Source: an uncultured virus (IMG/VR IMGVR_UViG_3300031419_000541)
Lineage: Duplodnaviria; Heunggongvirae; Uroviricota; Caudoviricetes
DNA length: 64,000 bases
Virus record (IMG/VR): IMGVR_UViG_3300031419_000541
Reading direction: 5' to 3' (one strand)
Below, in pieces: positions 37,509 through 59,014 of this stretch (position 1 is its first letter; every line of letters begins with the position of its first letter). Both the position numbers and the translations under genes were made by a program. Under the pieces are notes generated by a model. It was not told the DNA's origin and made no database searches. It saw only the letters and a list, made by a program, of their open reading frames with translations.

Positions 37509-38465
37509 ATGAGGCAAGTAAGTATTATGGAGTATAGAAAAGTAGGAACTCTTTTTAATTATATCGGTGGAAAAGGTTGGTTAAAAGACCGTTTAAGACT
37601 GGAAACAGATAGTGTATTAAAAAATAATTCAGACATAACTATGTATGTAGAGCCTTTTGCAGGAGGTTTGGGTGCCTTTTTAGGTATTTATGACGTTTTG
37701 CTGGAGAATAATGTCAGAAAAATTATTTTAAACGATATAAATACAAAGATTATTAACTTTTATTCAATTGTTAAAACTTCGCCGCACTCATTAATAAAAG
37801 AATATATGATAATTGAGAATGAATATAAAAACTTAATTTTATCAGAAACCCGTAAATTAAATAAGACTAAAGATAAACTGCTAATTAAAGAGCAATTAAA
37901 GAAAGCCTGTGATTATTATATGGCAGTCAGAGAAGCATTTAACCATACAGAAACGGTTGGAGTACAAAGTGCGGCTCGATTATTGTTCCTTCAGAATCAT
38001 TGCTTTAACGGGGTTTACAGAGAGAATAGTAAAGGTTTTTATAATACTCCTTTCAACTGGGATCATAAAATTTTTGAAGAAAATAAGATTATTAAAAAAG
38101 TTGAGGATGTGCATGAAGTTTTCAAACTTTTTGATATCGAACTCAGAACAGGTTCTTTTGAAGAACTGGAGTTTACCAATAACGCGTTATATTATCTTGA
38201 TCCGCCTTATATTAATGAAGACGAACTGGTAGAAAATAAATACAGTAAAGGCGGTTTTGATGCAAAAATGCAATTACTGTTAATTAAATCTATTGAGCAT
38301 GTTCCTTTTATTTACAGTAATCATAAACATCCTCTTTTATTGAGTGAATTTAATAATATGGCGGGTGAAATAACAGTTAATGAAATTGGAAGAAAGAATA
38401 TTATCAGTGCCTCCAATGAAAGTCGTAAAACAGATAAGCTGGAAATACTGGTTGTAAGAAAATAA
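37509..38465 (+). CDS. Dam-like N6-adenine DNA methyltransferase
   Basis: YIGGK, YVEPFAGG, NDIN, FNGVYRENSKGFYNTPF and YLDPPY motifs. Confidence 0.9.
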   Translation: MRQVSIMEYRKVGTLFNYIGGKGWLKDRLRLETDSVLKNNSDITMYVEPFAGGLGAFLGIYDVLLENNVRKIILNDINTKIINFYSIVKTSPHSLIKEYMIIENEYKNLILSETRKLNKTKDKLLIKEQLKKACDYYMAVREAFNHTETVGVQSAARLLFLQNHCFNGVYRENSKGFYNTPFNWDHKIFEENKIIKKVEDVHEVFKLFDIELRTGSFEELEFTNNALYYLDPPYINEDELVENKYSKGGFDAKMQLLLIKSIEHVPFIYSNHKHPLLLSEFNNMAGEITVNEIGRKNIISASNESRKTDKLEILVVRK

Positions 38466-40559: not shown

Positions 40560-41390
40560 ATGTTAAAAGTAATGCGTTATAATGACAAAGTGGTATCTGG
40601 CTATCTGATCAACGATGACGGTCAGGTCTTCCAGAGTCGCGGTGCAAAACGTGTTCCTGTGAATTACTTTTTAAAGAATGGAACCTATTTCTTTAAAATT
40701 ATCATGAATGGTAAAATGGCTGACGTGCCAGCTCTGGATCTGGTTTTATCTAATTTTACAGATAAACCTTCTGATTACAAAGCTGTTGCTTCATTTAACC
40801 GTGTGGTTATCAATGAAAAAAATCCATTAAAATTGAGCAATTTATACTGGAAAAAACTGGATTCTGTGAAATCTGGTGAGGCTTTTTATGCCAGTGAGTT
40901 TGAACAACAATTCATGCGTCAGGTTTTTGTCAGCGGCGTTCTGACTGCGATTAAGATTAATGAACATGGTCAGGTATTCAATTCAGCAGGCAAAGAAATT
41001 AAACCAAAGCTATCGCGTTTAGGTAAGCCTTATCTGGAAATTAACATGCCTTTCAACATGGGTATGAAATCGGTTAATCTGGCAGATATCGTTGCTGAAA
41101 CCTATCATGTGCCAAAGAATGATTTTTTGATTAACTATCATATTTCTTTCCTGGATAAAGATAAGAAGAACTGTGCCAAGAACAATGTAATTCTTTGGCC
41201 GGAAGGACATTCAGGTATTGCACGTAAGAAAATTGTAAAAGTTCTGAAAGATGGAAAATTCTTTGGCGTATTTGACAGTGTTAAAAAATGCAGTGAGATT
41301 ATTAATATTCCCCGTCGCCGTGTGAGTGAAATTTTGAAAACAGGTTGCAGCAAGAATGGCTTCGAAGTCATGCATATTAATCTTTCATAA
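40560..41390 (+). CDS. NUMOD4/HNH/NUMOD1-like protein, tandem and apparently catalytically degenerate
   Basis: YLINDDGQV and INEHGQV, LADIVAETY, LDKDKKNCAKNNVILW, FDSVKKCSEIINI motifs. Confidence 0.7.
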   Translation: MLKVMRYNDKVVSGYLINDDGQVFQSRGAKRVPVNYFLKNGTYFFKIIMNGKMADVPALDLVLSNFTDKPSDYKAVASFNRVVINEKNPLKLSNLYWKKLDSVKSGEAFYASEFEQQFMRQVFVSGVLTAIKINEHGQVFNSAGKEIKPKLSRLGKPYLEINMPFNMGMKSVNLADIVAETYHVPKNDFLINYHISFLDKDKKNCAKNNVILWPEGHSGIARKKIVKVLKDGKFFGVFDSVKKCSEIINIPRRRVSEILKTGCSKNGFEVMHINLS

Positions 41391-43369: not shown

Positions 43370-43420
43370 ATTTACCAACCAAATCCGTAAAGCCTCCTCC
43401 TTAAGGGGGAGGTAAATCAC
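43370..43420 (+). mobile_element. solo IS200/IS605-type end hairpin (PATE-like remnant)
   Basis: 43370-43396 is identical to the reverse complement of 74-100; followed by CCTCCTCC ttaa GGGGGAGG taaa TCAC. Confidence 0.7.
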
Positions 43421-44262
43421 AGTCTGGCTGCTTTGATGAGTGCAGGTTCAACTGAATGTTGAGTGGTTTTTTTGAGATATTGTTGTTCTATCAGTGCTCT
43501 GGCTTTTGAATGTTCTGGAAGATTTGGTAACATATCAATTACAGTCTGACCCGATTTATTTTTATAGCTAAAATCAATATCACGATGAGTTAACATATTT
43601 GAAATAGTCTGGTCTATTTTATCAATAGTGTTGTGATTAGGATTAAATAAAATATGCTGAAAATAATTATTCGTTCCCGCAAAAGGTATGTTGGGATTAA
43701 ATCCTTTTTCAGTCGCCCATTTTATAATTTCATGATAGGAATTATGCTGTAAAGTAAAATGTTTAGTCATGTGAAGAACAAGATGATGGCTAAACATATA
43801 GCAGTTAAGATCGGCACCTGCATCAACAAAAGCGATTAATTTTTTATCAATGATATCATTGGTTCTTAAAATTTTATTTTTTTTCTTTTCTTTCATGTTC
43901 ACTTTCATAAAAAGAGACAAAGGTGTTTCGTTTTGTGAATTTACCTGATTAATAGTAGTATTTGAAAGTTGTGCCATTTTTTGAATATCAGAAAGTTTTC
44001 CACTGTGTACCAGTGAAAACCAGGGGGAAGTCATATTTTGGGGTGTCTTAGATTCATCAGAATATTTCAGAAAAAGACGGGTTAACTTGGGCATGTTATT
44101 TGCAATAACACGACCTAAAAGCGTAACATTGACATTTTGAGAGTAGCTGTGTTCACAAGGATTAATCTTCTGGGTTTTAATCATTTTTTCAAGTTGTGAG
44201 AAAGCGTCTGGATCTTTTTCAGCCGTGCGCATAAGTTCAAAAAATTCAGGAGGCAGTGACAT
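43417..44262 (-). CDS. ankyrin-like protein, family A, with C-terminal tag
   Basis: ATG at 44262 after AAGGA; GADLN, FNPN, NNYFQH, IDFSYKNK; ends AARL. Confidence 0.8.
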   Translation of the reverse strand: MSLPPEFFELMRTAEKDPDAFSQLEKMIKTQKINPCEHSYSQNVNVTLLGRVIANNMPKLTRLFLKYSDESKTPQNMTSPWFSLVHSGKLSDIQKMAQLSNTTINQVNSQNETPLSLFMKVNMKEKKKNKILRTNDIIDKKLIAFVDAGADLNCYMFSHHLVLHMTKHFTLQHNSYHEIIKWATEKGFNPNIPFAGTNNYFQHILFNPNHNTIDKIDQTISNMLTHRDIDFSYKNKSGQTVIDMLPNLPEHSKARALIEQQYLKKTTQHSVEPALIKAARL

Positions 44263-44358
44263 AGTTATCCTTGTGAATATAAATATAATAATTATTATAA
44301 CAAAAAATAAAAAAAACAGAATAGCCATATGCATATTCTGTTTTTTATTAAATTGGAA

Positions 44359-45582
44359 TTAGATTCGGGAAAGTGTTTTTTCTGCCTTGTACGGATTAAC
44401 TTCAATCAGAGAATTTAATTGCTGCTGTTGATAAAGGCTGATTTGCTCTTTTAAAAATTCAGAAAGAACAGGGTTAATTCCATAAGGATAGAAGTTTTTA
44501 TTTTCTGACTGATTAAGGAGTTCCTCAATTTTAAGCGCATTCTGACTACTTTTAGTTGTGTAAAATTGTTTTTGCTTTTCTGGCGTATTTAAGAGAAGAG
44601 AGAAAACATCTTCAAGTTGTTTTTTGTTATAACCTTTTGATGGTTTATTCATTCCTTCATAAATATTATTAATAAATGTTTTATAGTCAACGGTTTCATT
44701 AAGCTGAATAACTTCCTTATTTTTTAAGTAAGGTTTAATTATATTCACAAAAACAGGGAAATTCAGCATATTTTCAATAATGATCGTTTTGTCTTGTTGA
44801 GTAAAGACAAGAGAATCTTGTTTATTTTCAATAATATGTGCTGCAACATAGTTTAAAAAGACATCATGATATTGATTCTGGTATCGTTGCTGCTTCACCC
44901 TTTCAAGATCAATAATATTATTGTCGATAATAAAGGTAAACATGTCTTTTTTGATATGTTCGGCTTTAATATTGCAAACATCATTTTGACACCAGTTTTC
45001 ATAAGCAAGATATTCAACAAAATGATTCATTGTGTTATTAATAATTGTCTTGATTTCGTCCGGTGATGTTCTGTATTTCCCAATCATTAAAAGCGTATCA
45101 TAAATATCATATTTATTACTTTTAATAAAACGTTCATAAAGACTATCAGGAAGAGCAATGCCTTTTTCTTCACAAGCATAAAAGAAATTAAAGATATTAC
45201 TTAAATCTGACTGACTTTTGCCTGAAAGGTGATAAATAGTATCTATCATATTGATGTCTTTAAGGAGTCCTGTTTCAAGCAAACACTTAAGAGATTCAGG
45301 ATTATAAAAAGCAGCCCCTTTCTTTTGTGAGTAATCACGACAGATAGCTTTTTTTAAAATGTTAGCAGATAAACGTTGTGGTTCGAGTTCTGCAAGTGTG
45401 CTGGCAGTTGAATATAGTTTACTTTCCATAGCCTTAGTAAAAATAAAACTATAATCACCCTTAAATTCATTTACAAGTGAAACAACTTCAGTGTTATATT
45501 CTTTTTGATTTTTTATTTTTAATTCAGGAAGACTAAAAATTAGCTTAATTGTGTTCACATCAATTTCAGGAATATAATGCAT
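44359..45582 (-). CDS. hypothetical protein, family B, with C-terminal tag
   Basis: Ends LSRI; GAGG RBS and TGTTATAAT promoter. Confidence 0.85.
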   Translation of the reverse strand: MHYIPEIDVNTIKLIFSLPELKIKNQKEYNTEVVSLVNEFKGDYSFIFTKAMESKLYSTASTLAELEPQRLSANILKKAICRDYSQKKGAAFYNPESLKCLLETGLLKDINMIDTIYHLSGKSQSDLSNIFNFFYACEEKGIALPDSLYERFIKSNKYDIYDTLLMIGKYRTSPDEIKTIINNTMNHFVEYLAYENWCQNDVCNIKAEHIKKDMFTFIIDNNIIDLERVKQQRYQNQYHDVFLNYVAAHIIENKQDSLVFTQQDKTIIIENMLNFPVFVNIIKPYLKNKEVIQLNETVDYKTFINNIYEGMNKPSKGYNKKQLEDVFSLLLNTPEKQKQFYTTKSSQNALKIEELLNQSENKNFYPYGINPVLSEFLKEQISLYQQQQLNSLIEVNPYKAEKTLSRI

Positions 45583-45637
45583 AATAACCTCATAGAAAAA
45601 TATATAAGGTTATTATAACATAAAAAAAAGAAAAGTA

Positions 45638-46822
45638 TCAGAGGCGCGAAGTTTTATCCTGAGATTTAACTGATAAGGCAAGCTGGTTACTTAATGTTAA
45701 TTTTTCATAGCGGCGAATAAAAATTTCAATAACAGGTTGCAGTTCTGTATTATACTGTATTTTGCCGGAACGATAATCATTATAGAAATTACTATTTTCG
45801 ATATTTAGGTTAAAGCAGTCAATGATTTTTTGGTCGGTATCAAGGACTTTATGAAGAGAAGATTCAAAATTTTCAGAAGTATAGCCTGTTGGTCGATAAA
45901 TATGTTTAACAAAAAGTGGCATGTTATTTTTATCAGAAAGAGAAAAATGAGGAAACATTTTGAAAAAGAATTCTGGGGTAATGAATCCGATCATCAAGAA
46001 AACATCAATTTGATCAACAGGTAGAGTATCCAGTTTATTTTGCTGTTCAAGAATAATCATTAAGTTACAAGCGTTAATAGGAGTCAGGTTACGAAATTTT
46101 TCTGCATTTTTATCTGTACCGTTAAAAAGATCATGCTCAATGACATAAGAAAAGAACACAGGGATTTCTGTTTTTCTGTCCAGATAGCAACCTTTAACGT
46201 CTCTGACTCTGGAGTTTATATATTCCTGTAAAAAAATGCGTTCATTAGAAAAATAATGAGAAATGAGATGGTTTTCTTTAACATAACGGTTAAATTCTTC
46301 ACGATTTTCCTGATTTCTTTGTGCGTGAATAAGAATAATTTCTGGTAATTCCGGTAAAAAAGAGTTGTTAGTTAAAAAACTTTGATAAACTGAAAAAGGC
46401 AAGGTATGACCTTTTTCCTCAATTTGACGAAAGAAAGAAATAAGAGTTCTGCATATTTCAATTTCGTCTTCTGCTCTGATTCTGTAAATTTGTGATAATT
46501 TATCTGAAGATTTTAGAATGTTGTTTTCCAGAAAAAATTTAAACGTTTCGTAATTATAATAAACAGATCCTGAATTATTAAGTAAATCCGATTTGGTATC
46601 CTGATAAATAACACCAGGTTCTCGTAGTTTTTTGGCACTTATGTGATAGATTTGTTTAGCTAATGAATAATTTTTATCAGAAATAGCCTCTCTGAAAAGT
46701 TCAATTTCACGGTGTTTTTGAAAAAATGGTTTTCCTGAACGAATAAAATCAGGTGATTGAGCAGCATGTAATGCGGATAGTTTTTTAATGGTATCAATAA
46801 CGTTTTCAGATAAGAGAGTCAT
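45638..46822 (-). CDS. hypothetical protein, family B, with C-terminal tag
   Basis: Ends YEKLTLS...TSRL. Confidence 0.85.
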   Translation of the reverse strand: MTLLSENVIDTIKKLSALHAAQSPDFIRSGKPFFQKHREIELFREAISDKNYSLAKQIYHISAKKLREPGVIYQDTKSDLLNNSGSVYYNYETFKFFLENNILKSSDKLSQIYRIRAEDEIEICRTLISFFRQIEEKGHTLPFSVYQSFLTNNSFLPELPEIILIHAQRNQENREEFNRYVKENHLISHYFSNERIFLQEYINSRVRDVKGCYLDRKTEIPVFFSYVIEHDLFNGTDKNAEKFRNLTPINACNLMIILEQQNKLDTLPVDQIDVFLMIGFITPEFFFKMFPHFSLSDKNNMPLFVKHIYRPTGYTSENFESSLHKVLDTDQKIIDCFNLNIENSNFYNDYRSGKIQYNTELQPVIEIFIRRYEKLTLSNQLALSVKSQDKTSRL

Positions 46823-46912
46823 TTTAGTGTGTTTCCAGAAATAATTTATACATAATTATAGCATTATACAGTGAAAAAAGAATGCTATAAATGAAAAAAT
46901 TATAGATTGTAG

Positions 46913-46957
46913 TTTACCTCCCCATAAAAGAGGAGGATTTACAGATTTGGCTGATAA
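46913..46957 (-). mobile_element. degenerate copy of the IS200/IS605-type end hairpin
   Basis: tttacctccccataaaagaggaggatttacagatttggctgataa aligns to the reverse complement of 43370-43416. Confidence 0.6.
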
Positions 46958-46963
46958 GGAAAA

Positions 46964-48187
46964 TTATAAGCGATTGAGTATGAGTTTTTGTGATAAGGGG
47001 TGCGGTTCTTTTATTTTAGTGAGCGCATTTTTTTCTAATAAAACAGTTATGGCTGGGACATTCTTCTCTTTGATATATTGAATCACGTTATTTATATCAC
47101 ATTCTGTATAACAAAAACACTTCATAAGTTTTTCGAAAGATTGCTGTTTTCCTTGTTTTAATAATAAATCCATCGTGTCTGTAAAAAGATACAAATCCAG
47201 TTTTTCTGGTGGTGTAGAAATCTGGATATTTTCACGGATCAAAAAGTTAAGGAAAACATAGTTATTGTCATATTTCATTTTTTCTTTAATGAATGAAAGC
47301 ATTTCATTAGTATATAAGTTAACCAGTTGTGAAAAATCAAAATGCATTTCCTGAAGAACTTTGATACTTCTGGAATTAATAAAATATTGTTCTAAGTGAG
47401 AATAAATATTTTTATCGCAAAGAGGAGAAAGATTGAGGTTTTGAAAGTTGATCTGATAACGTGAATGATAATCACGAAGATTAACTGATGTGATTGGGCG
47501 TTTTTTATTATAACCTGAAATGAAAAAAAAGTGTGAAGCTGGCTCGTCACTTACAAAATTATTTTGTATCAGGAAATCAAGAATGGCTATGCGTTGTTCA
47601 TATGTACATTTTTTTATGGACGATGCATTAATTCGCTGAATAATACGAGGAATATTTAGCGAAAATCCCAGTTCTCTTAATGTAATTAAATCTTCCTTTC
47701 TTCCATAACTAATAGCAAGCGTGTCATAGTTGGTGAAATTGGCTTTTTGTGAAAACTCAATCGGGTAATTATGTTTTTTAATAAGATAAGCTGCAACGTC
47801 TGGTTTTCTGATAAGATAGAGCCATGAAATTAAATCATGTTTTTTATTTTGAAATGCATTCTCAACAATCGGAAAATCAGTTTCATAGAGGTAATCAATA
47901 TAGGGTTCAAAGTTTTTGCAATTTTCAGCAATCGTAATAATTAATTCGGTTGAATCATAACGGTAATCCAATAGTAGCTGAAAATCAATTACCCGTTTGA
48001 AGAATTCAACATCGCGGTTTTTAATAACAAAGAGTAAATCTTTTTCAAGGAAGAAAGGAATAGGTTTATCCATACTCGCATCCTGAAAAAGACAAGGGCA
48101 GTATGTTTCAACCGATGAAAATCGACGATAAAAATCATTTTTTTTGATCTTAAAATTCATATTTTCAGAATCAAAATAAATCTTCAT
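46964..48187 (-). CDS. hypothetical protein, family C, with C-terminal tag
   Basis: Ends LEKNALT...LNRL. Confidence 0.85.
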   Translation of the reverse strand: MKIYFDSENMNFKIKKNDFYRRFSSVETYCPCLFQDASMDKPIPFFLEKDLLFVIKNRDVEFFKRVIDFQLLLDYRYDSTELIITIAENCKNFEPYIDYLYETDFPIVENAFQNKKHDLISWLYLIRKPDVAAYLIKKHNYPIEFSQKANFTNYDTLAISYGRKEDLITLRELGFSLNIPRIIQRINASSIKKCTYEQRIAILDFLIQNNFVSDEPASHFFFISGYNKKRPITSVNLRDYHSRYQINFQNLNLSPLCDKNIYSHLEQYFINSRSIKVLQEMHFDFSQLVNLYTNEMLSFIKEKMKYDNNYVFLNFLIRENIQISTPPEKLDLYLFTDTMDLLLKQGKQQSFEKLMKCFCYTECDINNVIQYIKEKNVPAITVLLEKNALTKIKEPHPLSQKLILNRL

Positions 48188-48366
48188 GAATTGTTTTCCT
48201 TTAAAATAATGACAATAGTATATCCTGATTGAAAATTAACTGCAATCAGTTTTTTGTTGCAATTGTAGCAGGCTTTTGCTATGATTCTTTTATGGTATAA
48301 GAATCAGATTGTGGAACATTATGCAAACGTCAGTTTTGCATACCAAACCACAAAGAGGAAAATACC

Positions 48367-48684
48367 ATGAATAAAAAAAATTTTGATATCAATGTAAAAG
48401 CAAATCATGTTCTTTCAGAAGAGAGTTCGTGGAAGGACTTCTGGTTATATTTTTATGGACTCATTGAATCACAGGAAGAGCCTCGTATGAAGTCGTCTTC
48501 AGGCATGGTGACTATTCATTATATGCCATATGGAGACATACAGGCTGAGCTGGGAGGATATGATACATTGAGTATGAACAGGCATGAATATGTGTCAGCG
48601 CCATCAGAAGTTGAGTTAAAGGTTAAGATTATTGCTTTATTTGAACGAGAAAGGCTGGAATTATTGAATCGAGAAGAAGATTAA
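48367..48684 (+). CDS. hypothetical protein
   Basis: GAGG RBS, own promoter, terminator about 48687-48710. Confidence 0.75.
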   Translation: MNKKNFDINVKANHVLSEESSWKDFWLYFYGLIESQEEPRMKSSSGMVTIHYMPYGDIQAELGGYDTLSMNRHEYVSAPSEVELKVKIIALFERERLELLNREED

Positions 48685-48749
48685 TAAAAGGGGAGCAATA
48701 GCTCCCCTTTGTTAATATAAAAGTAGATTTATCAAAGAGAGGCGCACCT

Positions 48750-49205
48750 ATGGGAAAATTAACCAGAATTAATGACAAAGCAGAGCGGATACACACAACG
48801 GTAGCTGCTATGTTTTTTGATAAAAGCAAAGAACATATTCTTATGATCGAAAAAGCAGATCCTGCCTATGGCAGCAAATATAGTATCATAGCCGGTCATG
48901 TAGAAGATAATGAAACTATTCATGAGGCATTTAAACGAGAGTTATTCGAAGAATTGACACTGGAAAATGTTGAGTTTAAGCTTTTGAAAAGTTTTGTTGA
49001 ACTTAAAGATTCCTGCAGGTATGGTGTGCATGTTCATGATTGGCATGTTTTCACAGTCGATTATATCCCGGATCTTCAAAATGAAACCTTTGATAAATCT
49101 GAAATAACATCTTTGAATTGGATAAAAGTCTCAGAGTTAACTGGGTTTTCGCATAAATTAACCAGTGGTGCTTATTCGTTATTTAAAGCTATGAAATTAA
49201 TTTAA
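48750..49205 (+). CDS. NUDIX hydrolase
   Basis: AGHVEDNETIHEAFKRELFEELTL Nudix box. Confidence 0.9.
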   Translation: MGKLTRINDKAERIHTTVAAMFFDKSKEHILMIEKADPAYGSKYSIIAGHVEDNETIHEAFKRELFEELTLENVEFKLLKSFVELKDSCRYGVHVHDWHVFTVDYIPDLQNETFDKSEITSLNWIKVSELTGFSHKLTSGAYSLFKAMKLI

Positions 49206-49206
49206 T

Positions 49207-49233
49207 AAAAAAAGAGGACACTGTCCTCTTTTT
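49207..49233. terminator. bidirectional terminator between NUDIX and the micropeptide array
   Basis: AAAAAGAGGACA c TGTCCTCTTTTT. Confidence 0.75.
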
Positions 49234-49246: not shown

Positions 49247-49273
49247 TCAGAATCCAAAATCTTCTTCGGGCAT
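49247..49273 (-). CDS. acidic micropeptide MPEEDFGF
   Basis: AAGGAG RBS, ATG, shared ED-phi-[DG]-phi motif. Confidence 0.65.
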   Translation of the reverse strand: MPEEDFGF

Positions 49274-49286
49274 AAGTGCTCCTTGA

Positions 49287-49319
49287 TTAAAAATAATCGA
49301 CATCTTCGGTTTGAATCAT
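49287..49319 (-). CDS. acidic micropeptide MIQTEDVDYF
   Basis: AAGGA RBS, ATG, shared motif. Confidence 0.7.
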   Translation of the reverse strand: MIQTEDVDYF

Positions 49320-49375
49320 AATGTTATCCTTCTTTATAATGACAATGCTTTTAATCTAAACCTAAGTCTTCTTCA

Positions 49376-49408
49376 TTAAAAGAAATCAAAATCTTCTTCT
49401 TCATACAT
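49376..49408 (-). CDS. acidic micropeptide MYEEEDFDFF
   Basis: GAGGGA RBS, ATG, shared motif. Confidence 0.7.
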   Translation of the reverse strand: MYEEEDFDFF

Positions 49409-49430
49409 ATAAATCCCTCTTTTTTTAATG

Positions 49431-49463
49431 TTAAAATACATCTACGTCTTCTGCATCATACAT
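49431..49463 (-). CDS. acidic micropeptide MYDAEDVDVF
   Basis: AGGA RBS, ATG, shared motif. Confidence 0.7.
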   Translation of the reverse strand: MYDAEDVDVF

Positions 49464-49493
49464 GATTTATATTCCTGTGTGAGTTAATACAAA

Positions 49494-49526
49494 TTATAAT
49501 ATATCAACATCTTCCTGGTTCAACAT
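49494..49526 (-). CDS. acidic micropeptide MLNQEDVDIL
   Basis: TAAGGAGGT RBS, ATG, shared motif. Confidence 0.7.
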   Translation of the reverse strand: MLNQEDVDIL

Positions 49527-49663
49527 ATAAACCTCCTTAGTTAGTATAAAAGAATATGCACATTTCATGATCTCAATATATATTAAGAAGCGATAGTCAA
49601 ATTTTAAAAAAGTCATAAAAAAAGCCACCCGAAAGTGACTTTTAATTAACAATTAAAATAATA

Positions 49664-50134
49664 TCAAAAATAATCAGATTCTTTTTTCATTTTACCATTA
49701 AAAAAGTATTCGAGTTTACCTTTTTTATAGACATCTTTTTGTACGTCATCAACACTCCATCCGAAGTGATTAATAAACAGCCGCGAATAAGCATGAAAGA
49801 GATCTTCTGAAACTGAACAATGCAGGTAATCATTACCAAGTTCCTGTTGAACAGCCTTAATTAAAGCAATACTGTATCCTTTGCTTTGATAATCAGGCAT
49901 GATTTTTATGCAACAGAGTTTTGATTCTTTTTCCGTTTTTTTAGCAATAGCGAAACCTGCTATTTCACCAGATTCGTTTTTAACCACAAAAACATTATCT
50001 TCACCTAACAAGACACGTGGGATGGCTTTATTGATATACCAGTGTTCAACGTCAGGATAGAAATCTGAAATAGTCTGAACGACCGGTAAAAGTTGCATAA
50101 GAGGAAACAGAGTTGTAACCTTGGTAATTTCCAT
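49664..50134 (-). CDS. GNAT-family N-acetyltransferase
   Basis: IAGFAI, KLCCIKIMPDYQSKGYSIALI acetyl-CoA motif A; ATG at 50134 after AGGA. Confidence 0.85.
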   Translation of the reverse strand: MEITKVTTLFPLMQLLPVVQTISDFYPDVEHWYINKAIPRVLLGEDNVFVVKNESGEIAGFAIAKKTEKESKLCCIKIMPDYQSKGYSIALIKAVQQELGNDYLHCSVSEDLFHAYSRLFINHFGWSVDDVQKDVYKKGKLEYFFNGKMKKESDYF

Positions 50135-50230
50135 ACTTTGATTCCTATCTAAGAAGTTTGTAAAGTTATCAATGAATAATAATATCATGTTCAGCTACAA
50201 TAGTGCAAGCAATACCTGCACTATTGTTAT

Positions 50231-51394
50231 CTATAATCTTTTTAAAGTTTTAGCAGCAGAAGACTGGGATAAATTATTTTTAAGAGTTTGTTTTTCAATC
50301 ATAAGCCAGAATGCAGTAACCGTATCTTCGTTGAGATAAAGGTTTTTATTAAATAGTTGCGCTTCAAAATCATTGCGGGATTCCATGCCATTAATATCAA
50401 AACCAGAGATATGCATAATTTTCATAATAGTATCAAATTTTTCATGACAAACACGGGCATTACATTGAAAAAAATTATCAAATTTATCAATTTGCTCAGT
50501 GGTTTTTAAGTCAATATGAATATTATTATCAAAAAAATAATCCGTGATTCCGGGATATTTATCAGATAACAAATAACCTGTGATACTGTTTAACAAATTA
50601 TCCGAAGTATGTCGCTGCTCAATAAAAATTTTTAATGGAAAACCATTAGATTCAATAAATTCAAGCAGTTCTTTTGATTTATAAAACGCAGATAATAATT
50701 TATTTTCAATGGTCATCCATTCAAAAAGATTTTGCTTACTTAAATCAAGATTACTTTTATCTAAAATAGCCAGATAGTCTGAAATTGAAAATTCTGTCCT
50801 TTTTGAAGCAAAAAATAATTTTTCATAAGCTTTTTCGAGATCAAAATCTGTGTTGTTTTTATGAATAAGGTTAAGTATAACAAATGTGTCAGAAAGATTA
50901 TCACGTGTAAGGTTTTCATAAAGAAAATGTCGTTCGCTGGCAGGAAAGCCACGAGAAATAAGGTGTTCAATCATTTGACTATTTTTATGTAAACAGCAGG
51001 TATCATAAAAATTGCCGGAATTTAAAAACACTGCTGGATAGCTTTTATGAGTAATTAAATAGTCTACAACATCAGATCGATTATTTTCGTATAATGTTGA
51101 AAGGATGTCATTACAGACCATAGTTTGATTATATTTACTGACATCAAGATTAAGGCCCGCACTATAAATTGCATTTATATATGGCTTATAATTATCAGAT
51201 TGAAACTTGATAATGTTCATAACTAAAGGATAAAGAAACCTGAAAGATTCTGTTTCAATATCTTCTTTGTAATAACGTAACAGTTTACCTAAAACATGAG
51301 GCATTCCAGAATCAATAACTTCCTGTAAAATATGCTGAACATTTTCGGGTTTATTTTCAATTTGATTACGATAGTATTCAAAATTCTGGGTCAT
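50231..51394 (-). CDS. hypothetical protein, family C, with C-terminal tag
   Basis: YKPYINAIY..DVVDYLITHKSYP resembles 46964 ORF; ends LKRL. Confidence 0.85.
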   Translation of the reverse strand: MTQNFEYYRNQIENKPENVQHILQEVIDSGMPHVLGKLLRYYKEDIETESFRFLYPLVMNIIKFQSDNYKPYINAIYSAGLNLDVSKYNQTMVCNDILSTLYENNRSDVVDYLITHKSYPAVFLNSGNFYDTCCLHKNSQMIEHLISRGFPASERHFLYENLTRDNLSDTFVILNLIHKNNTDFDLEKAYEKLFFASKRTEFSISDYLAILDKSNLDLSKQNLFEWMTIENKLLSAFYKSKELLEFIESNGFPLKIFIEQRHTSDNLLNSITGYLLSDKYPGITDYFFDNNIHIDLKTTEQIDKFDNFFQCNARVCHEKFDTIMKIMHISGFDINGMESRNDFEAQLFNKNLYLNEDTVTAFWLMIEKQTLKNNLSQSSAAKTLKRL

Positions 51395-51396
51395 AA

Positions 51397-52263
51397 TTAT
51401 AACCTGTTTTTTAAAGCAGGTGCTGCTTTTTTATTAAATGTTTGGTTGAGATAAATATTCTCAATCGTGGTTACGCATTCTTCAGAGATTTTACCTTTTC
51501 CCAGTCGGGAGTGAAGTAATTCTATTAAAGTTTCATTATCTTTGTTTTTATAAGAAAAATCAATATCATGTTTAGATAATACCTTATTGAGAATCTTATT
51601 CTGCCATGCTTTATTATCTTTTGTGGCAACCTGATTAAAAAAATGCTGTAAGAAATTATTGTCAGTATTATGGTGAAATTTTATATTTGGATTAAAATTA
51701 TACTTTAAACTGGTATCAAGAATTTCTTCATAAATGTTTTGTCTGTGACCGAAATTACGCAACCAATACATGCAGACATGATTTTCATCAAGATACGTGT
51801 TAATATCTGCACCTAAATCCAGTAAGAAAATTGTTTTATCATTAATAAATTTACTGATTTTATTTTCTTTGAGATTTGGTTTGGGAAGATTGCGCTTAAC
51901 AAAATGAGCAAAATTACTGGGAACGGTTTTTAAATCAGTAGGTGAGTTAAGCGTTGTTGTACCTGCCTGTGCCATTTTTTTTAAAGTAGATAGCTTGCCA
52001 TCAAAAATAGCCGTAGTCCAGGGCGATCTGGCATTAGCCGGTGTTTTACTTTCGTCAGAATATTTGACCATTAAAGAAAATGCTTTATCTCCATAATGGA
52101 GAAGACTAAATGCTAAAAGGGTATAGTTAGCGTCATTGACAATAACTTCAGAAGGATTTATTTTATTATCTTTAAGTATTTGTTCAACTTCGCCATAAGC
52201 TTCTTTACTGTTTTCTTCAAAGAGCTTAAAGATTTGAGAAATTATTTCATTATCAATATTCAT
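51397..52263 (-). CDS. ankyrin-like protein, family A, with C-terminal tag
   Basis: KYSDESKTP..SPW, GADIN and IDFSYKNK shared with 43417 ORF; ends KNRL. Confidence 0.85.
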   Translation of the reverse strand: MNIDNEIISQIFKLFEENSKEAYGEVEQILKDNKINPSEVIVNDANYTLLAFSLLHYGDKAFSLMVKYSDESKTPANARSPWTTAIFDGKLSTLKKMAQAGTTTLNSPTDLKTVPSNFAHFVKRNLPKPNLKENKISKFINDKTIFLLDLGADINTYLDENHVCMYWLRNFGHRQNIYEEILDTSLKYNFNPNIKFHHNTDNNFLQHFFNQVATKDNKAWQNKILNKVLSKHDIDFSYKNKDNETLIELLHSRLGKGKISEECVTTIENIYLNQTFNKKAAPALKNRL

Positions 52264-52340
52264 ATTTTAAATCCGATTATTTTATTTATTATTATAACAT
52301 AGTTATATTATATTGAAAATGTGAGTCATTCATATTTTTA

Positions 52341-52386
52341 TTTATCAAATAAATAAAGCCTCCTCCTTCTTGATAAGGTAAGTCAA
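52341..52386 (+). mobile_element. highly degenerate IS200/IS605-type end remnant
   Basis: tttatcaaataaaTAAAGCCTCCTCCTT...ggtaagTCAA; core shared with 43388-43402. Confidence 0.4.
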
Positions 52387-53321
52387 AGGCGATTAACTTG
52401 AAGCTTTGAAGAAGAACTGTTTATTTGGTTAAGCAAAGATTTTTCAATAACAGTGCGAGTTTTATCCTTTATTTTGTATTTTTCAAGGAAATCAGAAATG
52501 GTCTGCTCTTTTTTATTTTTATATGTTGTATCAATAGGTAAATATGAAAGAAGAATATCAACTGAATTATCAGCTTGAGTCAGGTTATTTTTAATCAGAT
52601 ATTGTAAGTAATTATCACCCGTTTTTTTATCATAAACAAGATTGTAATTAAAACCATGTTCAAGATAAAGACAAAGAACATTTAAATATTGTGAAGACGA
52701 TAAATATGCAGCATTGTCCAGAACAGGGAAAACACAATGAGTATCATTTCCTGAAATATCATTGAAAAAAGAATTAGGGTTTGCTCCTGCTTTCAATAAA
52801 GCAGTGAGAGGGCCTTTAATAAATTTTTCTAATTTTTCAGTAGTAATGACATAAGGTTTTTCGCCTCTATAAGGGTTTTTCTTCTTATTTTCATCATAAT
52901 ATAAAGAAGTCATGATTCCCAACGGTTCGCCATTTCTGAATCCATTAGACTTGCTATAATCATTAATGCCGTCAGTTCCTTTTTCACTTAATTTAGTAAT
53001 TAATTTAGCATTACAACTTGTTGCGGCTCCAACCCAGGGCGAATGCAAAGAATCAGGCATTTTGTTTATATCAACATAAGGCAACAAGGGGGGAATAATT
53101 TCTTTGTAATAATAATGTTGTACAAAAAGGAAACCGAATAACGAATGTGAGGCAACAGACGAAACCTGACAGAGATTAATATTATTCTCTTTCAGATAAG
53201 TGGTTAGTTTTTGAAGCGATGCTTTTTTTTGTTCTTTTGTGATCTCTTTATTTTTACTGTGCAAATCATCACTGATCAATGTCAGCATTTCATCTGAAAT
53301 TTCGTGTATTTCATTGTTCAT
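52383..53321 (-). CDS. ankyrin-like protein, family A, with C-terminal tag
   Basis: SPW, GANPN, DNYLQY, IDTTYKNK; ends VNRL. Confidence 0.85.
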   Translation of the reverse strand: MNNEIHEISDEMLTLISDDLHSKNKEITKEQKKASLQKLTTYLKENNINLCQVSSVASHSLFGFLFVQHYYYKEIIPPLLPYVDINKMPDSLHSPWVGAATSCNAKLITKLSEKGTDGINDYSKSNGFRNGEPLGIMTSLYYDENKKKNPYRGEKPYVITTEKLEKFIKGPLTALLKAGANPNSFFNDISGNDTHCVFPVLDNAAYLSSSQYLNVLCLYLEHGFNYNLVYDKKTGDNYLQYLIKNNLTQADNSVDILLSYLPIDTTYKNKKEQTISDFLEKYKIKDKTRTVIEKSLLNQINSSSSKLQVNRL

Positions 53322-53378
53322 ATAATTTCTCCATTTATAGGTTAATTATATACCTAATGGAATAATTAATCTACTTTC

Positions 53379-54578
53379 TTAAATACGAGATTTATCACGG
53401 GATTGTAACGGCACAGATTTCATGCTTTTATTTAATATACACTTTTCTTTATCCACACACATTAATTCATAGTTATCCAGAGCTTGTGAAAAAATAAAAA
53501 ACAGACTTTTTTTGTCAGTCATATCATTACGAACAACTTCTATAAAAGGAATACTCAATTGATAACTACAAAGGTGAGAATTAAATAACATTTTAAGAAA
53601 ATCAAAATCATTGAATTTTATCATCTTGTTCAAGAAATGTTTTAATGACTCAGTATTAGTATGACAGAGGAAAAGAACATTGATATGTTGAATAAATAAA
53701 TCAAAGTGAGATTCTTCATTTAAAGAAAAATCAGGATATAAATAAAATAATGCTTTACTGTATTTTACAGATAATTTGTCCAGTAATAAAAGATAATTAG
53801 AGTCATTATTGATGTCAAATTTTTCAAGCTGTTGACTTAAATGGAGTGAAAAAAGGTAGCATAATAAATATTTGTTATTATATTCATCGGGTTCTTCTTC
53901 ATCAAAGAATCCAACCTTAGATAAGGTAATAAGCGCACTTTTAAGCTCATTTATAACTGGTAAAAGGTCAGGGTTATCAGTATCTGGTATTTTTTCAGAC
54001 AGGAAGTTTTCAATTCGTCCAGTTCGTTTTAAGGTATCAGTAAAAAGACCATATTTGTCATGATTAAGTAATTCTATAAGTATGAATTCATCACGAGTAT
54101 TATTAATGATACGAAAAAAAATACCATAAGGAATATGTACATCTGGATATATTGTATTAATATTATTAACAAGTTCTATATAATTCTGAGCCTTATATTT
54201 GTCATTAAAAGAATAAAGTTGTAATATAGAAGTTAGTCTTGACGCATCTTCAGGAAATTTTTGATTATATGCAGGCCAGAATACTTTATCCAAAAAGTTC
54301 ACCGTCTCTGGACAAAAATAGGTTTTCCCTTGATTATTATGACCATCAAATGAAATATATTTAATAAGTATGTCATCGCGTACAACCCGATTAGGCTCCA
54401 TGCGAAGCACTAATTCTGCGATATCAAATGCCTTTTCAGAAATGGCTTTATCAAAAAGAAGAAAAAATTCATTGGAATGCGTATGTTTTTTTAACAGTGA
54501 ATTAAGTCTCTTCCGATAAAGAGGTGAACTGCTTTTCTTTAAGGTAAAAAGGTTTTCTATTTCTTCTTTGATAAGCAT
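53379..54578 (-). CDS. hypothetical protein, family B, with C-terminal tag
   Basis: LFDKAISEKAFDIA..EPNR resembles 44359 and 45638 ORFs; ends KSRI. Confidence 0.85.
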   Translation of the reverse strand: MLIKEEIENLFTLKKSSSPLYRKRLNSLLKKHTHSNEFFLLFDKAISEKAFDIAELVLRMEPNRVVRDDILIKYISFDGHNNQGKTYFCPETVNFLDKVFWPAYNQKFPEDASRLTSILQLYSFNDKYKAQNYIELVNNINTIYPDVHIPYGIFFRIINNTRDEFILIELLNHDKYGLFTDTLKRTGRIENFLSEKIPDTDNPDLLPVINELKSALITLSKVGFFDEEEPDEYNNKYLLCYLFSLHLSQQLEKFDINNDSNYLLLLDKLSVKYSKALFYLYPDFSLNEESHFDLFIQHINVLFLCHTNTESLKHFLNKMIKFNDFDFLKMLFNSHLCSYQLSIPFIEVVRNDMTDKKSLFFIFSQALDNYELMCVDKEKCILNKSMKSVPLQSRDKSRI

Positions 54579-54686
54579 ATTTAATGATCTCTTATTTTTG
54601 CAATACTATATCACATTATAAATAGTGTTTGAACAATTATTTTAAGTAGTGTATGATTTTTTTATTATTGTGTTCAAAGGAAATTT

Positions 54687-55466
54687 ATGAAAAGAGACAT
54701 GCAAAAAATAATGAAATTGTGTGAGCAGATTCTTATTCTATTAGACAAATGTGAAACAGATAACCTTGAAAGCTTAATTGAAGATATAAAAAAATCTGCA
54801 CCGGATTCAATGGATTTGTTTTTAAAAAGTTATGCCAATTCTTTTTCATTTAGTGAAGACTCACGACGAGTAATAATTGTTTTTGATAATATGGAAAAAA
54901 ATGCACAGTTTGTAATGTGTCTATGTAATTATTTATCTAAATGTGTCAATAATAAAGATTATATACTTGCTAATCAATTGGTTGAAAAATATATAACAAT
55001 TAATAATATAGAAAACATAATCGGATTTCTTATTAATGCTTTTTTAGTAGAGGATGTTTTGTATAACAAGGTTATTCGGGATATGTTAATTGAAAAAATT
55101 AAAATTAAATATGGTAAAGAGTTTGAATATAAATATACAAGATTATTAACTGAACATTACATAAATGCTCCTTGCTCATTAACAAATATTATTATTTATT
55201 TGTTTGAAAAACAAAACATGATTAATGAAAAATTATTCAATATAAGTTTTAATCCGCCATTAAAAAAGAAAGATGTTAAACAAAAAAGGGTAGAGATTTT
55301 TCATTCATTTAAAGGCGTGATCAACTATATCGAGCTAATGTCAACTCAGAATGAAGAATATAAAAAAGCTTATCTTGAAATGAACGCTGTGTTAGGAAAA
55401 ATATGGAAAATGGAAATTTCTTCTAATATTAGCATAAAAGGAAATGAGAAAGTTAAAAGGCTTTGA
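54687..55466 (+). CDS. hypothetical protein with C-terminal tag
   Basis: Ends KVKRL. Confidence 0.8.
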   Translation: MKRDMQKIMKLCEQILILLDKCETDNLESLIEDIKKSAPDSMDLFLKSYANSFSFSEDSRRVIIVFDNMEKNAQFVMCLCNYLSKCVNNKDYILANQLVEKYITINNIENIIGFLINAFLVEDVLYNKVIRDMLIEKIKIKYGKEFEYKYTRLLTEHYINAPCSLTNIIIYLFEKQNMINEKLFNISFNPPLKKKDVKQKRVEIFHSFKGVINYIELMSTQNEEYKKAYLEMNAVLGKIWKMEISSNISIKGNEKVKRL

Positions 55467-56095: not shown

Positions 56096-57895
56096 ATGAA
56101 CAAGCTATTAAAAAAATACATAGACACAAATCGCTTTGGTAATCCGTTACACAGATTAACTACTTTTATGTTTTTTAGAAATTATGACTGGGACGATTTT
56201 TTTAAAAAAGCAGATAATATCTATTATGCATTTAAAAAACTGCCTTCAAATTCATTTATTGAACTTTTAGAGAAAGCGCCTCATGCAGAAATAAAAAGTT
56301 TTTTAGAACAAAATACACTTATTTATAAAAAAATACTCATAGATTTATTGAACGAAAATAATATTGCAGTTGCAAAATATCTTCAAAGCAAGGCAAATTA
56401 TCCTTACTTACAAATGAAAGATATTCCTGATTTTAACAGTCAGGAAGCGAATGAAGAACCGCTTGCATTAGCAATTATGACTAAAAATAAAAATTTTTAT
56501 GAAATACTGGCTTCTCCTTTTTATGATAGTGAAGGGAAAGAATCTATCAGAAAGAGAACAGAAATACTGTTTCATTTCATTAGAAATATCGATATCGAAG
56601 GTGTAAAGTTTTCACTTGATAATAAAATAGGAAAGTATTACACAAACAATCCTGTGAGAGGTAAAACCAAAAATACCGTTTTGTCAGAAGCATTTAAAAA
56701 TACGGACAGAGATTTTTATGAAAAAAATAAAGAAAAAATTAATGAAATTTTCAGGTTGCTTTATGAAGATTTTACTGAGAATAAAGTAGACCATAATACA
56801 TATTATTTTAGTAATACTAGAAAATCTAAGGCAGATAACGACAAGAAAATTTGCATTAATGATATATCGCATAATGTATATCCAGAAATAATAAGTGATA
56901 TTCTGTATCATTTTTCACCTATTTACAAAATGGAAAAAAACTTTGAAATAGAAAGCTTTGCAATGAAGTCTCATCTTGTTGATGAAAAAGCATATGATGG
57001 ATATGATCTCTTTGATAAGGATAATAGTTCAGGCGAAGAGATAATATGGGCAATGCTTAAAATGGATTTTGATTCCAGATCAAAAAATAAAAATATAAAG
57101 GAAAGTTATCTTATGTTTCATATTTTATGTGAGATTGAAAAAATAAAGATTGATACAGAGAAAAAAATAAACGTTATCAAATTTCAGGATTTAAATGATT
57201 TTATAAATAAAAGAATGTATCTGATTGAAAAATGTAAAGACACGTCTATTATTCTTAATGATAAAATAACGGTTCAAAAACCAGATAATAAATATATTTC
57301 ATTTAAATTAAATCATCCTACATTATCTTTGATTTTAAATAATAAGAAATATTTTGAGTCTCTTTTTAATAATTCACGAAGAGAATGTATGGATAGATTA
57401 TCAACAGTGGATGTGTATAATTCCGGCGCGTATGATTTATTAAAATCGATACAAGAAGAATATGCTGATAATCCCCATAAATCAATAAGTAAAGTAGAAC
57501 AGATTCGTTATTTCCAAAATGGTGATTCTGGTATACAGCTTTTATTTAAACATGATGAAGATATCATGAAATCGCTAAAAGAAGAATGTACAAAAAATTA
57601 TATTAAATTTATGGTTGAAAAATGGGATTCAGACATTCTTAAGCAATTTAAAATAAGTAATTTTATAAGTACAAATAATTTATCTTTTGATTTTTTCGAG
57701 GATACTGTAAAAACGGTATTTGCTGAAAAATTAGAATCATTTTCAGTAAGAGTATTAAATAATAGCATTTTTTCAAAAGAAATAGAAGAATTTAATTATC
57801 ATGTTGCAGAAGAGTGTGCCATAACATCTAAAAAAATGCTTTCTGATTCCGTAGAAATAGGGAAAATAAAAAAAACGAATACTGTAAGATTATAA
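56096..57895 (+). CDS. hypothetical protein with C-terminal tag
   Basis: 599 aa, GAGG RBS; ends TVRL. Confidence 0.85.
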   Translation: MNKLLKKYIDTNRFGNPLHRLTTFMFFRNYDWDDFFKKADNIYYAFKKLPSNSFIELLEKAPHAEIKSFLEQNTLIYKKILIDLLNENNIAVAKYLQSKANYPYLQMKDIPDFNSQEANEEPLALAIMTKNKNFYEILASPFYDSEGKESIRKRTEILFHFIRNIDIEGVKFSLDNKIGKYYTNNPVRGKTKNTVLSEAFKNTDRDFYEKNKEKINEIFRLLYEDFTENKVDHNTYYFSNTRKSKADNDKKICINDISHNVYPEIISDILYHFSPIYKMEKNFEIESFAMKSHLVDEKAYDGYDLFDKDNSSGEEIIWAMLKMDFDSRSKNKNIKESYLMFHILCEIEKIKIDTEKKINVIKFQDLNDFINKRMYLIEKCKDTSIILNDKITVQKPDNKYISFKLNHPTLSLILNNKKYFESLFNNSRRECMDRLSTVDVYNSGAYDLLKSIQEEYADNPHKSISKVEQIRYFQNGDSGIQLLFKHDEDIMKSLKEECTKNYIKFMVEKWDSDILKQFKISNFISTNNLSFDFFEDTVKTVFAEKLESFSVRVLNNSIFSKEIEEFNYHVAEECAITSKKMLSDSVEIGKIKKTNTVRL

Positions 57896-57910
57896 TAAGT
57901 TAAATCAAAT

Positions 57911-57939
57911 AAAAAGGACTCAATAAAGGAGTCCTTTTT
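57911..57939. terminator. bidirectional terminator
   Basis: AAAAAGGACTC aataaag GAGTCCTTTTT. Confidence 0.75.
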
Positions 57940-57959
57940 TAATACTGGATATATAAAAA

Positions 57960-59006
57960 TTATAATCGATTAATTTGTCGGTTGCCAGAAACAATAGTGG
58001 TATTATTTAATTGTTCTTTATCCAGACAGATATTAATGTAGTTTAGGATTTCTGAGTATTCTTTTTTAAACATAACGTCCCGTTCTGGATAAGAACCTCC
58101 ATGGTCTGATATTATAATATTTTTAAGTTTAGCAAGGGTAGTTGCACTGCATTCATTAAAAATAGGAATGTAATCTTTTTTATATCCCTGAAAATCCTGC
58201 AATATACTCAATATTTGCCAGTCAGAAGGATTATTCTGCTTCATATATGTGTTAAATGCTTCAATGACGTACTGATTATAATGACTACTTCTGTGATGAA
58301 TAAATGTTTCAAGTAAAGTTAGTCTACCATTAGAAATTTTAAATTCCGGTATATTACAAAAATATAATTCGCTTAATGCGTTGTAATATGAAGATGGTGC
58401 TTTCTCTATATCAACAAAATATTGATTAATGAGTTCAAAAAAAGCATCACGAACAGGATTGATATCATAAGCCTGATCCATTGAAATTGAAGTATGATAA
58501 CTTGACATTTTTCCAAGATTAAAATGTGTCAGCTTAGCGAATTGTTTAAAATCGTTAAGGTTATTTTCATTTAAAGCATTAATAATACCCAAAACAATAA
58601 AATCACAAGGATATTGAAGCAAAAAAGAGTTTTGACATTTATTAAAATTAAAGAGATCCATAAGATAAGGTTTTTTACTATTAATTTCATTAAACGTTTT
58701 TATCTTTTCAGCAACATGAGAGATATCAAAACTACTAAATTCATTATAATTATTAACCAAAAAAGAAAATGGATGATATTCATCAGGTAATCCATTTGAA
58801 AAAGTGTGTTCATATTTGTTCATATGATCGATAATTTGATACTTGATATTGATATCAACATTATGATCACTATATAAAAAAATGAAGAAATTATGATAAT
58901 GAATATTTCGCATGAATAAATCCAGATAATACTCAGGATGGTTATAAAAATTTTCAGGCTGATATAATTCTTTAATTGTATCAATATCTATTGAAATGGG
59001 ATCCAT
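57960..59006 (-). CDS. hypothetical protein with C-terminal tag
   Basis: Ends LDKEQLN...INRL. Confidence 0.85.
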   Translation of the reverse strand: MDPISIDIDTIKELYQPENFYNHPEYYLDLFMRNIHYHNFFIFLYSDHNVDINIKYQIIDHMNKYEHTFSNGLPDEYHPFSFLVNNYNEFSSFDISHVAEKIKTFNEINSKKPYLMDLFNFNKCQNSFLLQYPCDFIVLGIINALNENNLNDFKQFAKLTHFNLGKMSSYHTSISMDQAYDINPVRDAFFELINQYFVDIEKAPSSYYNALSELYFCNIPEFKISNGRLTLLETFIHHRSSHYNQYVIEAFNTYMKQNNPSDWQILSILQDFQGYKKDYIPIFNECSATTLAKLKNIIISDHGGSYPERDVMFKKEYSEILNYINICLDKEQLNNTTIVSGNRQINRL

Positions 59007-59014
59007 AATTTTTC

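Follow-up and report, generated by a model that had tools for sequence, protein, structure and literature searches.

In the 64,000-nucleotide stretch of the uncultured viral record IMGVR_UViG_3300031419_000541 (IMG/VR; Caudoviricetes), the whole of which is called the window here, a gap of 458 bp lies between the stop codon of a GNAT acetyltransferase gene (49664) and that of a convergent NUDIX hydrolase gene (49205). Five ATG-started open reading frames (ORFs), all on the minus strand, were found in this gap. They span 49526-49247, are 10, 10, 10, 10 and 8 codons long in the order of reading, and encode peptides of the common pattern M-x(1-3)-E-[ED]-[VF]-[DG]-(x)-[FL]-stop. The array consists of the five ORFs, each with its own Shine-Dalgarno (SD) sequence, and of one decayed copy:

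49494-49539, minus strand: ORF1 with its SD (TAAGGAGGT, 49539-49531); ATG at 49526, stop codon at 49496-49494; peptide MLNQEDVDIL
49431-49476, minus strand: ORF2 with its SD (AGGA, 49476-49473); ATG at 49463; peptide MYDAEDVDVF
49376-49419, minus strand: ORF3 with its SD (GAGGGA, 49419-49414); ATG at 49408; peptide MYEEEDFDFF
49351-49377, minus strand: decayed sixth copy between ORF3 and ORF4, without an SD; the frame reads ..NEEDLGLD-stop
49287-49331, minus strand: ORF4 with its SD (AAGGA, 49331-49327); ATG at 49319; peptide MIQTEDVDYF
49247-49284, minus strand: ORF5 with its SD (AAGGAG, 49284-49279); ATG at 49273, TGA stop codon; peptide MPEEDFGF

The same five minus-strand ORFs had been listed in a first-pass annotation of this DNA, and its peptides, SD strings and SD-to-ATG spacings of 4-9 nt were all re-read identically; from ORF1 to ORF5 the spacings are 4, 9, 5, 7 and 5 nt. 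The ATG of the decayed copy overlaps the stop codon of ORF3 (TAATG), one base out of frame, and reads MKKT-stop. No ORF of at least 40 codons exists on either strand of the gap, with the exception of a TTG-started extension of the ORF1 frame, and the longer in-frame alternatives of ORF1 and ORF3 have no good SD. The predicted peptides have masses of 971-1371 Da (1.0-1.4 kDa), three to five acidic residues each and a net charge of about -3.5 to -5.5, and their C-terminal residue is Phe in four of the five and Leu in the remaining one. All five ORFs run for 8-10 codons from ATG to stop with no signal sequence, as does a small ORF of the type termed usORF that codes for the mature peptide directly.

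The clustering of the five ORFs is clearly non-random. When the six frames of the 64 kb were scanned by regular expression for the full motif (M-x(1-4)-E-[ED]-[VFLIM]-[DG]-x(0-1)-hydrophobic-stop), five matches were obtained, all of them in the array, and a loose tail motif had no match outside the array in these frames. Against the five occurrences observed for either motif, dinucleotide-shuffled versions of the window (300 shuffles) gave a mean of 0.02 for the full motif, never more than one per shuffle, and a mean of 0.36 for the tail motif; a two-unit DNA pattern with three matches in the window had none in 100 shuffles. The duplex energies of the SD sites with the anti-SD are -12.7, -4.3, -6.3, -5.5 and -7.7 kcal/mol for ORF1 to ORF5, which places them at quantiles 0.0008, 0.094, 0.028, 0.059 and 0.011 among all 2491 ATGs of the window. 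The median energy is -0.6 kcal/mol for all 2491 ATGs and -4.9 kcal/mol for the starts of 52 long ORFs; the SD of ORF1 exceeds each of these 52 and belongs to the top 0.08% of the 2491.

The motif scan, the shuffles, the SD energies and the alignment of the units all bear out the earlier view that the array is a family of peptides and not a DNA repeat. The four 10-codon units can be aligned without gaps, with ATG and stop codon in register, and share an invariant core, GAAGA..T.G, whereas their upstream parts are unrelated except for the SD. Among the six C-terminal codons of these units, the variable columns number two of six at codon position 1, one of six at position 2 and four of six at position 3; the hydrophobic codon always has T as its middle base. 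Variation weighted in this way towards third positions appears to be a coding signature, seen at very few sites. A tandem DNA repeat (iterons or a minisatellite) was rejected, because the units show neither whole-unit DNA similarity nor regular spacing: a coding core of 12-18 nt is all that is common, and the spacers (30, 22, 56 and 13 nt) are unrelated. A shared peptide motif on diverged DNA is about as clean a case for selection on decapeptides as can be obtained from sequence. The RNA of the array is not unusually structured (z -1.9; 4 of 100 shuffles fold equally well), the accessibility of its start sites is not exceptional, and no Rfam match was found anywhere in the window.

The array is bounded on both sides by hairpins and is preceded by a promoter-like site:

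49612-49640, minus strand: terminator-like hairpin with a U-run, after the GNAT gene, which it sets apart from the array
49575-49600, minus strand: promoter-like site with TTGACT (49600-49595) and TATATT (49580-49575), separated by 14 nt in the window
49209-49233, no strand assigned: hairpin resembling an intrinsic terminator, with T/A runs on both sides, which closes both the array and the convergent NUDIX gene

The hairpin at 49209-49233 (-14 kcal/mol, z -4.30) and that at 49612-49640 (-12 kcal/mol, z -4.42) were not equalled in folding by any of 200 shuffles each, and the former agrees with a terminator that had been placed at 49207-49233 before. Flanked by a hairpin at either end and preceded by its own promoter-like site, the array would therefore be a separate transcription unit. 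The minus-strand region 49600-49209 is most likely a self-contained small operon, in which a promoter-like site precedes five cistrons, with the decayed copy among them, and a terminator ends the unit. A consensus promoter scan missed the TTGACT/TATATT site owing to its 14-nt spacer, and the site was read directly from the sequence. In the related DNA of two sequencing runs, X2 and X3, the spacer is 17 nt through a 3-nt insertion behind 49587, and with this length the predicted promoter is near-consensus. The spacer of 14 nt would reflect either a real promoter-down deletion in the window strain or a slip of the assembly. A leader peptide or attenuator ORF was rejected, as the terminator stands directly 3' of ORF5 and the next gene is convergent, so that the transcript unit of the array has no regulated gene downstream.

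The runs containing this DNA derive from plant-surface, plant, food, rhizosphere and soil metagenomes, and no RNA run is listed among them. The strain comparison was made with contigs of sequencing runs only, and the figures given here hold among the listed differences (there are 108 further differences and 5 further indels); run X6 covers 48300-48900 only, and run X5 contributed no contig. X2 spans the whole 2 kb with two substitutions, one of which removes the upstream in-frame ATG at 49568, and the start of ORF1 at 49526 is therefore favoured. X3 contains several strains. An X3 contig (49347-49532) that spans ORF1-ORF3 differs from the window by 8.6% (16 of 186 letters) with no gaps, and its two listed differences are both in ORF2, one being synonymous (GTA>GTT, 49443) and the other V9A (49438). 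The X3 contig of depth 64.6 has no listed difference in 49502-49544, which holds the SD and the start of ORF1, and has seven substitutions in 49545-49585 together with the insertion behind 49587. Over ORF4 and ORF5, the X3 contig of depth 84.6 has a single listed difference, at the intergenic position 49286, and none in ORF4. None of the 12 listed indels falls inside 49247-49540; they lie clustered between genes, at 48704-48729, 49207, 49587, 49616 and 50174. Frames kept under constraint would give such a pattern.

It is likely that the array is a real, translated gene family; transcription, translation, stability of the peptides and any binding by them are what we infer from the arrangement described above. 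What is kept in the units, namely the SD, the start, the length, the acidic core and the hydrophobic residue before the stop codon, points to peptides that would work through a free acidic-hydrophobic C-terminus. We tentatively propose a lineage-restricted micropeptide operon, the products of which might act as ligands or mimics of acidic-hydrophobic C-terminal tails, and regard this mechanism as possible, not probable. The operon would most likely yield five leaderless, unprocessed and strongly acidic peptides, whose selected feature would be the C-terminal pattern E-[ED]-hydrophobic-[DG]-hydrophobic-[F/L] and its free carboxylate. As soluble tail ligands, they would fill a pocket made for an acidic-hydrophobic linear motif or for the C-terminal tail of a protein, and by occupying it would compete with the protein that normally docks there; five variants would supply dose and some spread of specificity.

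Ranked by fit, the candidate pockets would be that of the beta sliding clamp, that of the partner of the GNAT tail (..ESDYF) and, with a poor fit, those for the SSB tail. Positions 2-5 of the clamp motif QL[S/D]LF are matched by four of the five peptides (V-D-I-L, V-D-V-F, F-D-F-F and V-D-Y-F), and less well by ORF5 (D-F-G-F). This consensus is given in PMC8341153, together with a clamp-motif pentapeptide that inhibits the clamp and an SSB mimetic peptide of 10 residues for which the Kd with ExoI is 136 nM, the E. coli SSB mimetic peptide ending with D-D-D-I-P-F. From the activities of the SSB decapeptide and the clamp pentapeptide, the length of a decapeptide would therefore suffice for tail docking. 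The first-pass annotation had taken the array peptides for decoys that mimic the SSB tail, and this view is not supported: the ends DVDIL, DVDVF, DFDFF, DVDYF and EDFGF lack the SSB-tail consensus of an acidic run followed by [IL]-P-F, there is no I-P-F, and the register differs from that of ..DDDIPF. A free C-terminal Phe preceded by acidic residues is present in four of the five, with Leu in its place in the fifth, and a free acidic-aromatic C-terminal docking tail is a reasonable lead.

A more specific form of the tail-mimic proposal, which we consider unlikely as a whole, is that of free-standing competitive peptide inhibitors, that is, diversified docking-motif mimics of 8-10 residues encoded by a bacterium or by a phage-derived mobile islet. 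The plugged hub pocket would then be the beta sliding clamp, the SSB-tail pocket or, should the peptides be exported into host cells, a eukaryotic receptor that binds acidic C-terminal tails, and no folded protein would be needed to tune replication, repair or defence. We know of no natural free-standing gene for a competitor peptide of a docking motif. The array peptides resemble the SSB C-terminal decapeptide and the clamp pentapeptide described in PMC8341153 in that both are short (5-10 residues), acidic and hydrophobic, with Phe at the end, and those of the array would likewise plug a hub pocket; however, the competitors in that source are laboratory peptides derived from protein tails. 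If the peptides are inhibitors of this kind, the locus would be the first gene array in nature that encodes decoys of linear motifs; if they are mimics of tails or motifs at all, bacteria or mobile elements would regulate hubs via encoded linear-motif competitors, and the peptides would be natural leads for inhibitors of the clamp or of SSB interactions. Annotation overlooks genes of 8-10 codons, and the number known to function in bacteria is very small; should the array prove to be untranslated, the locus would be a useful warning on micro-ORF calls based on motifs.

Several results weigh against a selected array of tail mimics. The array pattern had no match in viral contigs or in 401 sampled genomes from the class of G001, and in metagenome contigs it matched four stretches, all of which are tandem DNA repeats without ATG or SD. 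The single-unit pattern with an SD had one chance match in viral contigs, at the C-terminus of a longer ORF, and the tail pattern had none in a 341-kb record with the GNAT-NUDIX pair (L090), either at the locus or in the whole record. The search for arrays in related elements that the first-pass annotation had suggested thus came out negative for viral contigs, metagenome contigs, the 401 genomes and L090. Conservation has been read only at the strain level, among the listed differences, and two of the three substitutions seen inside the ORFs alter the peptide. One substitution, the second of X2, is D8Y in ORF3 (49387), which changes the conserved Asp in a near-identical strain (two letters in 2 kb). 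The promoter spacer of the window itself is 14 nt, a length that is usually weak, and the window copy of the array may therefore be weakly transcribed. As to the motifs, no peptide has Pro at position -2 and acidic and hydrophobic residues alternate, so that the Pro-Phe end of SSB is missing, and the Gln of the clamp motif is absent, position 1 being Asp in ORF1-4. No transporter, receptor or partner was identified in a Pfam scan of 16 neighbouring proteins, and free 10-mers are usually degraded fast in the bacterial cytoplasm.

As far as these searches reach, the array looks restricted to one lineage. A plasmid DNA search found no match, the 52-residue extended ORF1 frame used as a protein query found no homologue, and a narrow literature search found no description of a tandem array of acidic ORFs of 8-10 codons in a Gram-negative-type genome. 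The pattern scan also picked up long tandem repeats of DNA (about 30-60 nt), unrelated to the array, in L080, L081 and L083 (all of one metagenome) and in L082; one repeat type among them is built on a short inverted repeat (GAAGAC..GTCTT).

Another role for the peptides, which we hold to be improbable, is that of cognate ligands of helical-repeat proteins (the ankyrin-like paralogues on the flanks or another receptor) or of exported leaderless signals, possibly to a eukaryotic host. The islet, composed of a 105-aa orphan, the NUDIX gene, the array and the GNAT gene, is flanked by nine orphan genes that resemble paralogues, of which the one checked in the Atlas is ankyrin-like (Atlas features 0.97; structure TM 0.52-0.60 for nine of ten rows and 0.45 for the tenth), and a specificity code could make use of five diverged variants. 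Leaderless, unprocessed usORF peptides do signal, as described in PMC10518010 for the SIP/LCP peptides of streptococci and other Firmicutes: they are encoded by a usORF of 24 bp (8 residues), have no leader, secretion signal or processing, and their genes were overlooked by gene finders, in all of which they are like the array. However, the LCPs of that source are single genes beside a RopB/Rgg receptor in Firmicutes, whereas the array has five tandem cistrons in a Gram-negative-type genome with an RND pump, without an RRNPPA receptor having been found. In contrast to the known LCPs, which are hydrophobic, the array peptides are strongly acidic, and no sequence homology links the two. The Pfam scan of the 16 neighbours revealed no adjacent RopB/Rgg (RRNPPA) receptor gene and no other known receptor, no transporter is nearby, and the array and the paralogues are not paired one-to-one.

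A parallel for the tandem arrangement is arthropod tarsal-less (polished rice), in which one transcript carries several ORFs of about 11 codons encoding variants of one short motif. The array is similar in its several tiny ORFs with motif variants, and a single transcript may be assumed for it as well. However, tarsal-less is eukaryotic and has another motif and function, whereas the cistrons of the array each have a bacterial SD.

It is also doubtful that the array is no more than a young, neutral or decaying tandem duplication of a tiny ORF, drifting without a peptide function. Such a history would agree with the restriction of the array to one lineage as far as searched, with the copy that has already decayed, with D8Y at a conserved Asp in a near-identical strain, and with a promoter spacer of 14 nt in the window versus 17 nt in relatives. 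However, the spacers between the units have diverged beyond recognition and yet the ATG, SD, length, motif and stop codon have been kept in five units, all five SDs are strong, and the array has no listed indel, unlike the neighbouring intergenic DNA.

In a third alternative, rated very unlikely here, translation itself would be functional and the array would be a minigene or cis element for ribosome loading, for raising or lowering RNA stability, for sensing a condition via abortive translation of D/E-rich codons, or for tRNA sequestration, and the peptides would count only by way of their codons. The very strong SD of ORF1 and the acidic codon runs near the starts would suit such an element. 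The bar minigenes of lambda, which are small translation-aborting regulators, act via peptidyl-tRNA drop-off, and mccA of microcin C, with seven codons, needs MccB-type maturation enzymes alongside. Both resemble the array in having few-codon ORFs with their own SD, and both are really translated. However, the Pfam and NCBIfam scans of the neighbourhood showed neither setting at the array: no maturation enzyme of the kinds known for ribosomally synthesized and post-translationally modified peptides or of the microcin C type (MccB/ThiF-like, YcaO, radical SAM, ATP-grasp) was found in the Pfam scan of the 16 neighbours, or in an NCBIfam scan of the GNAT, the NUDIX and the 105-aa ORF. Small translation-aborting ORFs are described as known regulators in PMC8092293. 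Against such a role, no gene follows in the unit, as ORF5 is directly followed by the terminator and then by a convergent gene; conservation is of the amino-acid class (V/F/L, with GTT, GTA and GTC varying) and not of the codon; and the fixed hydrophobic residue before the stop codon is left unexplained.

The remaining alternative involves the two genes that enclose the array:

49664-50131, minus strand: GNAT acetyltransferase from a phage-associated family (Pfam; phrog_13728, 3.4e-32), ending with ..KKESDYF
48750-49205, plus strand: NUDIX hydrolase, convergent with the array (Pfam, 1.5e-14; phrog_1198, 8.9e-16; PADLOC candidate PDC-S07, 1.6e-8)

It is most improbable that the GNAT uses the peptides as substrates or is regulated by them, for example through N-terminal acetylation or by competition with its tail. 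The GNAT gene is adjacent to the array and on the same strand, its tail ..ESDYF resembles the end ..DVDYF of ORF4, and its cellular branch has an added tail that four aligned phage homologues lack. However, the two are separate transcription units, the GNAT gene having its own terminator hairpin; the peptides contain no lysine; the GNAT and NUDIX genes are retained without the array in L090; no array was found beside the phage GNATs in the four records examined of 23 with a match; and the structural model of the GNAT is uninformative on the tail, its fold neighbours being generic GNATs. The suggestion in the first-pass annotation that the peptides are GNAT substrates is weakened by the terminator of the GNAT gene and by this array-free relative (GNAT 62%, NUDIX 51%). 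Precursors of the PQQ or mycofactocin type, PIP boxes, PDZ or DegS ligands, mimics of tyrosine-sulfated plant hormones, mimics of caspase sites and the eukaryotic P-stalk tail were dropped on the basis of sequence.

Homologues of the GNAT start at Met19 of its 174-codon frame (49664-50188), and the true start is probably this Met19, which gives a gene of 155 codons (49664-50131). Fifteen homologues were found, the close ones being P0001-P0013 (96% for P0001, 91% for P0002, 59-69% for P0003 and P0005-P0013), and relatives in jumbo phages, including 201phi2-1 (gp209), RSL2, Erwinia AH04 and others, are 35-42% identical. The four aligned phage GNATs end with ..EYxFN(G) and have no added tail, whereas the cellular branch carries an extra C-terminal tail of 8-9 residues, K-x-K-[KE]-[ED]-[ST]-x-[LIF], corresponding to ..KKESDYF in the window. 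Among the 63 long ORFs of the window, the GNAT is the sole one with a tail like that of the micropeptides. In its model, pLDDT is below 50 for residues 149-174 (the tail), and the fold neighbours found by Foldseek are generic GNATs; a toxin-antitoxin system was rejected because none of these neighbours is a tRNA-acetylating toxin. When the GNAT was used as an anchor in genome contigs, 82 pattern matches were obtained, none of them a relative. A GNAT homologue named from Serratia sp. was not found in two genomes of the genus or in 401 genomes from the family around G001, a single 31% match being all that was obtained.

The GNAT-NUDIX pair recurs in L090 (G802), an IMG/VR record classed as a provirus, in which genes with 62% (GNAT) and 51% (NUDIX) identity lie within 1 kb of each other. 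The coordinates of the pair are 145-591 and 1501-1968 in L090, and 48750-49205 and 49664-50131 in the window. In L090 a terminator stands directly 3' of the GNAT gene and is followed by a convergent gene; the array is absent, and is therefore not part of the conserved pair. The MoxR and the ankyrin-like paralogue of the window are also missing from L090. Possibly the GNAT and NUDIX genes together make up a small mobile module derived from phage. They are the only genes to which the Pfam scan of the 16 neighbouring proteins assigned a family. Elsewhere in the window, the best match of the RND pump is 69% identical and belongs to Enterobacterales, with further matches spread over many phyla, and the nearest named relatives of the MoxR are about 40-46% identical, other assemblies giving 95, 71, 66 and 63%.

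Two adjacent genes for D12-class N6-adenine DNA methyltransferases (36318-38465, plus strand) and an HNH-endonuclease-like gene (40560-41390) were also seen; together with the sporadic PHROG matches, they suggest that the window contains mobile DNA. A protein of 688 aa (61118-63184, plus strand) has a full-length match to phrog_33734 (4e-114) and a weak match to the NCBIfam RING-domain family NF041916, below the cut-off of that family. The tail of a 114-aa protein (17220-17564, minus strand; phrog_9509, 1.7e-22) is long and acidic and contains Phe and Trp, which makes it a further acidic-aromatic C-terminus in the window, though with acidic last residues.

Apart from the array, the C-termini of the larger proteins of the window have a bias of their own. 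Out of 63 ORFs of at least 100 aa, 26 end with x-R-[L/I] (NRL in seven, KRL in four, KRI in four, SRI in three, and others), where the dipeptide frequency predicts 0.36. Such ORFs are distributed over the whole window, for example in 43417-48187, 50231-55466, 121-6413 and 56096-60820, and many of them share a tail of about 20 residues, [IYL]-E-[KQN]-x-x-L...R-L. These ends look like a genome-wide C-terminal code for export or targeting on effector-like orphan proteins. Formally, they match plant PTS1 signals (x[KR][LMI], with upstream basic enhancers), as given in PMC3487989.

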